Below are positions 8,527 to 25,769 of a stretch of 64,000 nt of DNA, piece after piece. Each line of letters starts with the position of its first letter. Positions within the stretch are counted from its first letter, which is position 1. The stretch comes from a virus. The DNA is taken from IMG/VR virus record IMGVR_UViG_3300017783_000001. One strand, 5' to 3'. A model generated the notes under the pieces. That model saw nothing but the letters and a program-made list of their open reading frames with translations. It was not told where the DNA came from and made no database searches. Made by a program: the position numbers and the translations under genes.

Positions 8527-8579
8527 GGTGCGTTCCTTCAGGCGATTGCCTTACTTCCGACCATTGTTGGTTGAACGAA
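8527..8579 (-). ncRNA. Glutamine riboswitch (glnA RNA motif)
   Basis: UUCGUUCA-ACCAACAAUGGU-CGGAAGUA-AGGCAAUCGCCU-GAAGGAACGCACC: P1 CGUUC/GAACG, P2, E-loop and P3 of the glnA consensus. Confidence 0.88.
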
Positions 8580-24237: not shown

Positions 24238-24536
24238 GAAAACGAGAAGTTTCTGTTGCCAAGTACCTCTCAAACTCCGTTACCTATTAACTAGGCAGCA
24301 AGGGCAAAATTTGCTTCGCCATTTAAAATTGCGTTTGAGTTCGCCAACTATTAATCTCCAATGGGTCATCTGCGTCTGTCAATCCTAACACACCCCCCAT
24401 AAAAACACTAGCGATACTTACGCCACAGATATAACCAATACTTTAACATAGCAGTTCTCCTTCTACTAGTGTGTTTATGGTGGAGGTGTCGGGAGTTGCA
24501 CCCGAGTCCAGTCCGGTTCTTACACCACCATCAACA
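24238..24536 (-). ncRNA. ssrA: Circularly permuted two-piece tmRNA, alphaproteobacterial type
   Basis: Acceptor piece ends GGAC-UCGGG-UGCAACU-CCCGA-CACCUCC-ACCA (24478); coding piece starts GGGGGUG (24397) giving G3:U70; tag GEANFALAA* at 24320-24291 after UAAAU. Outer ends approximate. Confidence 0.93.
24408..24449 (-). CDS. Putative 13-aa peptide MLKYWLYLWRKYR in the tmRNA intervening segment
   Basis: AAGGAG SD, 7-nt spacer, ATG...TAG inside the intervening stem-loop. Confidence 0.5.
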   Translation of the reverse strand: MLKYWLYLWRKYR

Positions 24537-24537
24537 A

Positions 24538-24732
24538 TTAATCCTTTTTAATCTTATCGCAAGTATTCTCGTCAGCATAAAGACCAGTCTCTTTGTCGTA
24601 TAACCAAACATATGAGTATGCAATGCTATTGCCTTTCTCTATACATTTCTTACCGAAAGAAACTCTTGGTTCCTTTATACTACAAGCACTTATTAAACTT
24701 GCAATAAAAATAATACTAATCAGTTTGTACAT
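24538..24732 (-). CDS. Small lipoprotein
   Basis: Lipobox ISAC; two further Cys. Confidence 0.7.
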   Translation of the reverse strand: MYKLISIIFIASLISACSIKEPRVSFGKKCIEKGNSIAYSYVWLYDKETGLYADENTCDKIKKD

Positions 24733-25069
24733 TTACTTCCTTATAATTAAATATTCCGTACACTATGCACTTTTCTCCTTGTGCTGGTGTCTCAATAATG
24801 GCCATTAACTGACCATCTTCGTTTATCCAATGAGATATAGCATAAACTATATCACCATCTTTAGTGCCACCATTTCTTCCAAACCCAACACTATGTGGTT
24901 TCATTTTATTTGCGTCTAAAAACTCATTCATTTGAACGGCAGTAGTACACAACATAGGTGCTTGGCTGTTATAGAATATATTGTTATCGGCACTTACATA
25001 ATTACTTGTCATCAAAAACATAATAACGAGTAATAATTTTTTCATTGTTTCCTTTTGTTTTAGAAACAA
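24716..25069 (-). CDS. Secreted hypothetical protein
   Basis: Signal peptide from MKKLLL; two Cys. Confidence 0.7.
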   Translation of the reverse strand: MFLKQKETMKKLLLVIMFLMTSNYVSADNNIFYNSQAPMLCTTAVQMNEFLDANKMKPHSVGFGRNGGTKDGDIVYAISHWINEDGQLMAIIETPAQGEKCIVYGIFNYKEVNVQTD

Positions 25070-25079
25070 TTAATGTAAT

Positions 25080-25769
25080 TTATTTCGCTGTCTCTAACTT
25101 TTTGTTCTCGTAATATTTATAAAAGTTTTCAATTGATTCTTTCAATTGTGGTTTGTAATCTTCTGGTTTCTTAATCCACTCTTGCATAGAACCATCTTCT
25201 CCTGCGATTAATATGACGATTTGTTCTATCGGTGTACCGAATATCTCTTCATACATAATTGCATAGGCAGTTGTCTGTAAAAAGTAATTATCAATCCACT
25301 CTTCAATCTTTTCTTTGTTGGCAGTTTTGAAATCAATTACTGAAAGTTTGTCTCTATATTGAGCGATACAATCAACTTGACCTGCAAGTGTTAACTCTTT
25401 AGAGTACATAATCTCTTCAATCAAGTGTACATCACCAATGTTCTCTAGGTAGGGTCTCATTAACCTGAATAGACCAAGAGGTAGTACACCTCTTTCACTA
25501 GGTGTTTCACCTTTGATATAGTTCTCTACTAGATTGTGAGTTGCTTTACCACGATTTGCGGCTCTTCGCATTTCAAAGTTGGCGACATCTTCACCGATAC
25601 TTTCTCGCCACTTCTTTAGACCTTCTGTTTTTCTGATACCTAAAATAGAGGTTACAGAAGGATAATTCTGTCCGTCAACTTCGTAAAAACGAACACCGTT
25701 TTGTCTACGACCTTTTGTCTTTGGTAGTAGGTCTTTGTTCAAATCAACAAACTTAAATTCTTTAGCCAT
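25080..25769 (-). CDS. PD-(D/E)XK exonuclease
   Basis: YPSVTSIL, RGKATH, AGQVDCIA, IDFKT, YFLQ..AYA; sigma70 promoter at 25803-25831. Confidence 0.9.
   Translation of the reverse strand: MAKEFKFVDLNKDLLPKTKGRRQNGVRFYEVDGQNYPSVTSILGIRKTEGLKKWRESIGEDVANFEMRRAANRGKATHNLVENYIKGETPSERGVLPLGLFRLMRPYLENIGDVHLIEEIMYSKELTLAGQVDCIAQYRDKLSVIDFKTANKEKIEEWIDNYFLQTTAYAIMYEEIFGTPIEQIVILIAGEDGSMQEWIKKPEDYKPQLKESIENFYKYYENKKLETAK

Follow-up and report, generated by a model that had tools for sequence, protein, structure and literature searches.

A full-length small gene lies in the tmRNA spacer of close relatives of the phage studied here, at the same spot where this phage has a 13-codon open reading frame (ORF) led by a Shine-Dalgarno (SD) sequence; by this comparison, a throw-away segment would serve as a slot for small genes. 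In the joint reading that we consider fairly probable, the loop of the intervening segment (IVS) is a cargo slot, the 13-codon ORF is a truncated cargo allele, and its product is a relic. In two-piece tmRNAs the spacer is regarded as waste RNA without coding content; as a result, tmRNA finders and gene callers either mask the genes within it or annotate them with no regard to their location. The comparisons below show that marine T4-like phages, judged by their predicted genes, routinely park small genes as well as a tRNA in this spacer. The DNA analysed is a stretch of 64,000 nucleotides, hereafter the window, from the IMG/VR virus record IMGVR_UViG_3300017783_000001.

Results

The tmRNA gene and its setting in the phage

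The window represents a marine T4-like pelagimyophage with a GC content of ~34%, in which the minus strand holds nearly all genes. The tmRNA region is 80% identical to that of Pelagibacter phage Mosig EXVC030M (MT647606), where the match lies under the annotated SsrA, and the gene order PD-(D/E)XK nuclease, small ORFs, tmRNA, gp33, gp59 and gp32 is common to both phages. ARAGORN detected neither a tmRNA nor a tRNA in the window; the tmRNA was detected by Rfam instead, as a complete permuted gene on the minus strand (24542-24242), with the whole model matched by both RF04321 (73.8 bits, gathering threshold 47) and RF01849 (70.2 bits, gathering threshold 50). The acceptor piece (24478..24542, minus strand), located with these models and from the sequence, comprises the 3' half of the tRNA-like domain with the T-arm and terminates in ...CACCUCCACCA, its CCA end being at 24480-24478 and the final A at 24478. 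The coding piece (24242..24397, minus strand), also located by Rfam, starts at G1 = 24397 with the 5' half of the acceptor stem, which is followed by the mRNA-like region. The two pieces join in a 7-bp acceptor stem, formed by GGGGGUG (24397-24391) and the CACCUCC preceding ACCA and including a G3.U70 wobble, and the CCA-ended acceptor piece lies upstream of the GGGG... coding piece, which is the permuted order. Alignment to the Rfam consensus tag region predicts the tag frame GGC GAA GCA AAU UUU GCC CUU GCU GCC UAG (24291..24320, minus strand), encoding GEANFALAA, which ends in a hydrophobic ...ALAA and a stop as expected for a permuted tmRNA; the choice of the resume codon is a putative one. 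In Mosig the tag is GEDNFALAA, and the frame is kept with a synonymous change of GCU to GCA.

ORFs abut the tmRNA at both of its ends, and no sigma-70-like promoter was found directly upstream of it; from these two observations we infer that the tmRNA is cut from a polycistronic RNA, and it probably lies within a polycistronic transcript. The nearest promoter-like element upstream is a candidate T4-late-promoter-like sequence, TATAAATA, at 25114..25121 on the minus strand. The two small ORFs that immediately precede the tmRNA (24538-24732 and 24716-25069, both on the minus strand) have signal-peptide-like N-termini, and one of them contains a lipobox-like LISAC; the first ORF (24538-24732) has a stop that overlaps the initial bases of the tmRNA model. 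The window also carries a glutamine riboswitch (RF01739, 55.7 bits, 8527-8579, minus strand), which is 16 kb away from the tmRNA, whereas such a riboswitch adjoins the tmRNA in Methylophilales phage Melnitz (PMC9004378) and, in the same manner, lies directly downstream of the tmRNA in two of the relatives, L179 and L221.

Layout of the intervening segment in the window

As delimited by the sequence and Rfam, the IVS consists of the 80 nt between the CCA end and G1 of the coding piece (24398..24477, minus strand). It is closed by a stem of 13 positions, i.e. 12 pairs and one C.U mismatch, in which the 5' arm AUAAACACACUAG (24466..24478, minus strand) pairs with the 3' arm CUAGUGUUUUUAU (24399..24411, minus strand), the latter being recognized both by pairing and by comparison. 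The loop holds the SD AAGGAG (24457..24462, minus strand), which is unpaired in the centroid fold of the IVS, a 7-nt spacer, and the 13-codon ORF MLKYWLYLWRKYR plus TAG (24408..24449, minus strand), with its ATG at 24449-24447 and its stop at 24410-24408, within the 3' arm of the stem. The first-pass annotation had described the segment in these terms, and all the elements were found in place, including the length of the IVS, the stem, the SD and its spacing, the ATG, the 13 codons and the TAG in the 3' arm. The neighbouring bona fide genes have an AGGAG-type SD like that of the IVS ORF, and the same leader is found in the relative L285.

To obtain a chance expectation, the loop interior was shuffled 20,000 times, and the occurrences of an SD followed after 4-10 nt by an ATG were counted where the resulting ORF had 10 codons or more and ended in the IVS. 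Such an SD-led closed ORF arose in 0.5% of the shuffles when any 4-5-mer SD was accepted, in 0.08% when AGGAG was required, and in 0.015% when AAGGAG was required. The length of 13 codons alone is not unusual when compared with the shuffles (p=0.74), nor is the fold energy of the IVS (z=-1.33), and these two quantities argue neither for nor against coding. A weak, terminator-like 5-bp hairpin with a U-run (24425-24409) overlaps the 3' arm; a role as terminator was rejected, as the hairpin is weak and termination there would cut off the coding piece. A group I intron with a homing-endonuclease gene was rejected as well, as no intron family was matched in the window by Rfam and the insert separates the two permuted pieces, which are never rejoined. 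The tmRNA stretch is contained in six metatranscriptome runs. In RNA-library contigs from three studies (X15, X16 and X18) the IVS is contiguous with both tmRNA pieces, an observation of contiguity only, to which DNA carry-over might have contributed, and an RNA-library contig from a fourth study (X17) contains the long, L285-like form.

Contents of the intervening segment in relatives

Relatives were collected in two samples. The first was obtained with an 18-mer from the coding piece, and is thereby independent of the IVS; about 24 loci were resolved in it. A bare hairpin of 23-44 nt occupies the IVS in ~14 of the 24 loci, Mosig included, a tRNA-Arg(UCU) detected by ARAGORN lies in the loop in three, a 32-codon SD-led ORF is present in four, and the stub form of 79/80 nt was found in three, including the window. 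The check that had been proposed, whether SD, ATG and stop are kept in the loops of related tmRNAs, thus gave a divided answer, with ORFs in many loops, and bare hairpins or the tRNA in the others. The second sample, obtained with the acceptor end and the 5' arm as the query, yielded ~104 distinct IVSs of 12-267 nt.

A closing stem of 9-14 pairs is present in nearly all of ~90 distinct relatives, with the consensus UAAACACA.../...UGUGYUUAU, and extends from the acceptor stem. Its outer nine positions are conserved in sequence, and its inner positions covary, a pattern that supports the stem as a real structure. In the second sample, an ORF fills the loop in 25 of the 34 distinct IVSs of at least 95 nt, compared with 3.0 +/- 1.6 in shuffles, and these loop-filling ORFs extend from near the 5' arm to a stop that borders the 3' arm or lies in it. 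The cargo of the relatives includes ten or more small ORFs that are unrelated to one another, and five multi-member families of IVS ORFs show pN/pS values of 0.13-0.45, by which measure the IVS ORFs of the relatives are under purifying selection. Full tmRNA models of Rfam span the ORF in all of the 15 ORF-bearing loci tested, two of which are beta-type. Among the encoded products, a 63-codon ORF within a 223-nt IVS (L169:8744-8932) matches Pfam DUF6356 (E=4e-11, 43 bits, gathering threshold 24), which means that a curated protein family is encoded within a tmRNA spacer; searches of PHROGs and NCBIfam returned nothing usable for the IVS ORFs. The stop in ORF-bearing relatives is nearly always directly 5' of the UGUGYUUAU arm, 9-12 nt before G1, and in several of them the 5' arm is immediately followed by the SD; in our reading, the cargo has been compacted up to the stem.

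Several further forms were seen. A complete tRNA-Arg(UCU) takes the place of the ORF in the IVS loop at L124:4162-4238, L136:1261-1337 and L153:985-1062, and tRNA processing at these loci would alone separate both tmRNA pieces. In another type (L262:364-504, also in L268, L213, L174 and L253), a conserved ORF of 45-47 codons, MNWDWHWISWFKG..., reads through the 3' arm and has its stop 13-14 nt inside the mature coding piece. Following cleavage by RNase P, the excised IVS of this type would be a non-stop message, and non-stop messages are the natural substrate of tmRNA. Two viral contigs (L039:1163-1249 and L072:412-561) carry beta-type permuted tmRNAs (RF01850) with loop-filling ORFs, which encode a hydrophobic peptide of 29 aa and a basic protein of 50 aa; these beta-type loop ORFs take the habit beyond the alpha-type pelagimyophage clade. 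In the 167-nt IVS of L165 the 3' arm is duplicated (...GTGTGTTTATGTAAGCACATGTGTTTATGAT), as if recombination at the stem arms had left its trace there.

As a cellular control, alphaproteobacterial genomes were surveyed. A permuted tmRNA was found in 148 of 151 genomes (a tally that includes G043), and none of the 32 alphaproteobacterial IVSs that were parsed (3-120 nt, with 18 loci unparsed) contains an SD-led ORF closed in the IVS. A scan of the genome contigs with a 17-mer gave mostly chance matches and only two tmRNAs, one from Microvirga and one other, both of which have a GC-rich and structured IVS.

The micro-protein family and the deletion in the window

The ORF in the window is related to a family, here called family A, of micro-proteins of 30-46 aa; its 270 protein clusters cover lengths of 29-74 aa. 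The N-terminus of the family reads M-[ILF]-x-W-[LI]-x-x-L-F, and in the broader form M-[ILF]-x-[WY]-[LIFW]-x-x-[LI]-[FWL] this motif is present in the window ORF, and W, F, Y and L interchange at the aromatic positions of the family. The strongest conservation across the 270 clusters is that of the nearly invariant C-terminal motif DLSKHRLHTTKYEDLC; this motif, (G)DLSxHRxHT-x2-YEDLC-[MKQ], is absent from the window ORF. Among the best 80 viral loci of family A, 69 are free-standing without tmRNA flanks and eight are inside a tmRNA IVS. Three free-standing examples lie in operons with closely spaced genes, where Rfam detected no tmRNA, and in P0083 the gene lies inside a tmRNA IVS with the same synteny as in the window. 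As the family is mainly free-standing, the cargo is, by its distribution, a small phage gene of the ordinary kind that came to be captured by the spacer, not a peptide evolved for tmRNA. No Pfam, PHROG or NCBIfam family was matched by family A, and a feature search of the ESM Atlas gave no usable hit; an AlphaFold2 model consists of two helices with low confidence (pLDDT 61). Free-standing genes for the HRLHTTKYEDLC micro-protein are very common in diverse marine phage contigs (L450:1501-1617, L453:1501-1599, L456:1501-1596 and L468:701-796), and their neighbours include an SU10-type portal gene and a GTA-holin-like gene.

Outside the identical copies, the nearest relative of the tmRNA in the window is L285, whose acceptor piece is 97% and whose coding piece is 91% identical to that of the window. 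Its IVS has the leader TAAACACATTAGTATAAGGAGATATGCT, near-identical to that of the window, and the 35-codon ORF MLKYFLYLWKKNMCHINRDLSKHRLHTTKYEDLCM; the window IVS aligns with it with a single in-frame gap of 66 nt (22 codons), and MLKYWLYLW in the window aligns with MLKYFLYLW in L285 and with the family consensus MIKWLxxLF. The next nearest relative, L258, has a full-length gene too. Since both of the nearest relatives have the full-length gene, the short form in the window is by parsimony the derived one, arising by a 66-nt in-frame deletion. This deletion would have kept the SD, the ATG and ~11 N-terminal residues, removed the conserved C-terminal motif, and put in place the stem-paired TAG. 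Given the absent C-terminal motif and the 66-nt gap relative to L285, the window ORF is, on this alignment, a truncated allele and not a full member of family A. Both the missing motif and the nature of the ORF as a deletion stub had been overlooked in the first-pass annotation. Its proposal that the segment may act as a mini-mRNA for a cationic aromatic peptide holds in kind, as the SD-led ORFs of the relatives have the low pN/pS values given above, one of them matches DUF6356, and the SD, ATG and N-terminus in the window are inherited; the particular 13-aa ORF is a stub left by a deletion.

Alternative explanations and the fate of the stub

An accidental origin of the SD, ATG and stop in an AT-rich spacer would be in keeping with the ordinary fold energy and with a length of 13 codons that does not exceed that of the shuffles. 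Nevertheless, SD, spacing, ATG and closed ORF came together in at most 0.5% of the shuffles, and the leader and N-terminus are homologous to the 35-codon gene of the nearest relative and to a family of 270 clusters; chance is refuted by this homology to L285 and family A, and we give it hardly any credence. We also regard as very improbable that the ORF is a cis-acting leader, whose translation would melt the stem and tie maturation of the tmRNA to ribosome activity or to the supply of Trp/Tyr-tRNA, as had been suggested earlier. Such a leader would agree with the position of the stop: in nearly all ORF-bearing IVSs the stop borders the 3' arm or falls within it, 9-12 nt upstream of G1, and a ribosome terminating there would, given the known size of its footprint, occlude the arm together with the beginning of the acceptor stem. 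However, neither form of coupling is supported by the relatives, most of which have a bare hairpin, a tRNA or an unrelated ORF in the loop. Furthermore, the aromatic residues swap among W, F, Y and L without conservation of a particular amino acid, tandem regulatory codons are absent, the gene family is mostly free-standing away from tmRNA, and no alternative-structure switch was seen, the fold having z=-1.33 and the only terminator-like element being the weak 5-bp hairpin. Nor does the ORF match a leader-peptide attenuator of the trp/pheA type, as it is absent from most relatives, has interchanging W, Y and F, and contains no tandem identical codons; where the terminator/antiterminator structures of an attenuator were sought, only that hairpin with its U-run overlapping the 3' arm was present, and the fold is no stabler than those of the shuffles.

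The remaining alternative concerns the stub itself. The 13-aa peptide might be a functional minimal version, made from an IVS mini-mRNA and kept by selection, the active part being M-L-K-Y-W-L-Y-L-W plus RKYR, likely an amphipathic, membrane-seeking helix; we consider this unlikely. The SD, ATG and stop are intact, and the N-terminal motif is common to families with differing C-termini. In addition, the 80-nt stub IVS shows no differences from those of L125, L141 and L282, while the flanking genes of these three differ from the window by 5-8% and the coding piece of L282 differs by 3.8%; ~3-5 changes would be expected under neutrality. A possible reading of this identity is that the peptide or the RNA is constrained, or else that the tmRNA segment was exchanged recently. 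On the other hand, conservation is about equal in the IVS and in the mature tmRNA pieces, so constraint on the whole gene, or exchange by recombination, explains the identity as well. When variants of the stub interior were sought, just L125 and L282 came up, with the sequence of the window in each case; the stubs found form a single lineage, which holds no sequence variation on which selection at the codon level could be tested. C-terminally truncated forms do recur in IVS loops, as the L279 and L221 types, IVS-borne relatives of family A with 29 aa, are also without the C-terminal motif; N-terminal-only forms are thus recurrent, and they might be functional. What is missing from the stub, however, is the most strongly conserved part of the family, DLSKHRLHTTKYEDLC. 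With the conserved part missing and one stub lineage only, we hold with moderate confidence that the stub is most likely a relic without the original function of the family, and not a purpose-built regulator. It is rather doubtful that two-piece tmRNA genes double as expression cassettes in the full sense, in which RNase P and 3'-end processing would release a hairpin-clamped mini-mRNA whose cargo has here been pared to a still-functional, aromatic and cationic peptide of 13 residues that is kept by selection.

Discussion

A proposed course of events

In the cargo-slot reading, a conserved stem of 9-14 bp would close the slot, and different lineages would keep the loop empty, or with a tRNA or a small SD-led gene in it. 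The tmRNA gene would be transcribed within a polycistronic phage RNA, in which the IVS ORF would be one more cistron with a normal SD. Ribosomes may start at the exposed SD and AUG either before excision, on the precursor, or afterwards, on the IVS closed by its hairpin. A cut by RNase P before G24397 together with 3' trimming to A24478 would give rise to the two tmRNA pieces, and the IVS would be discarded; the excised IVS would retain both arms of the stem as well as the ORF with its SD and stop. With a terminating ribosome over the 3' arm and the start of the acceptor stem, translation and processing may compete.

If so, one transcript would be both the precursor of a stable RNA and a messenger. 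This raises the questions of whether translation and RNase P compete on one molecule, whether an excised spacer acts as a stable mini-mRNA, and what role the widespread HRLHTTKYEDLC micro-protein has in abundant ocean phages. For these questions the copy in the window is the least informative instance, being a truncated allele, and it marks how cargo decays or is minimised.

Comparison with known systems

Full-text searches of the literature returned no description of ORFs in tmRNA spacers. Two-piece tmRNAs have been reported in aquatic T4-like phages, i.e. Methylophilales phage Melnitz and Pelagibacter phage Mosig, in a study in which the IVS, or a gene within it, is not discussed (PMC9004378). 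The tmRNAs of both phages are like that of the window in being alpha-type and permuted, with the same synteny and a tag ending in ALAA; the IVS of Mosig, however, is a 43-nt hairpin without an SD-led ORF, whereas that of the window is 80 nt long and has one. A tmRNA database paper of 2025 described one tRNA-Ala in the IVS of a permuted tmRNA, which was called unique, and a repeat element in another, and mentioned no protein-coding IVS cargo (PMC11915505). The present case is like that of the tRNA-Ala in that the IVS houses another gene, here a tRNA-Arg(UCU) in close relatives, and unlike it in that protein genes are common in the IVS loops of the phages.

The nearest analogue is the 23S rRNA IVS of Coxiella burnetii with its S23p ORF (PMC4990558). 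In both, a stem-closed segment, optional and patchy in its occurrence, is excised from the precursor of a stable RNA and contains a small ORF. They differ in that the host RNA here is a tmRNA, and in that the cargo comprises a tRNA and a variety of small genes unrelated to each other, among which no S23p domain was detected with Pfam; the processing would also differ, probably by RNase P and 3' trimming here as opposed to RNase III there. As the host RNA is a tmRNA and family A has no Pfam hit, membership in the 23S rRNA IVS/S23p class was rejected and the resemblance is that of an analogue only.

Plastic regions of T4-type phages harbour morons and regulatory cassettes, in which small SD-led ORFs are gained, lost and swapped, often bracketed by stem-loops. 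The cargo described here differs from these morons in that it is bracketed by the stem that closes the IVS of a tmRNA precursor, and so lies inside the gene of a stable RNA.
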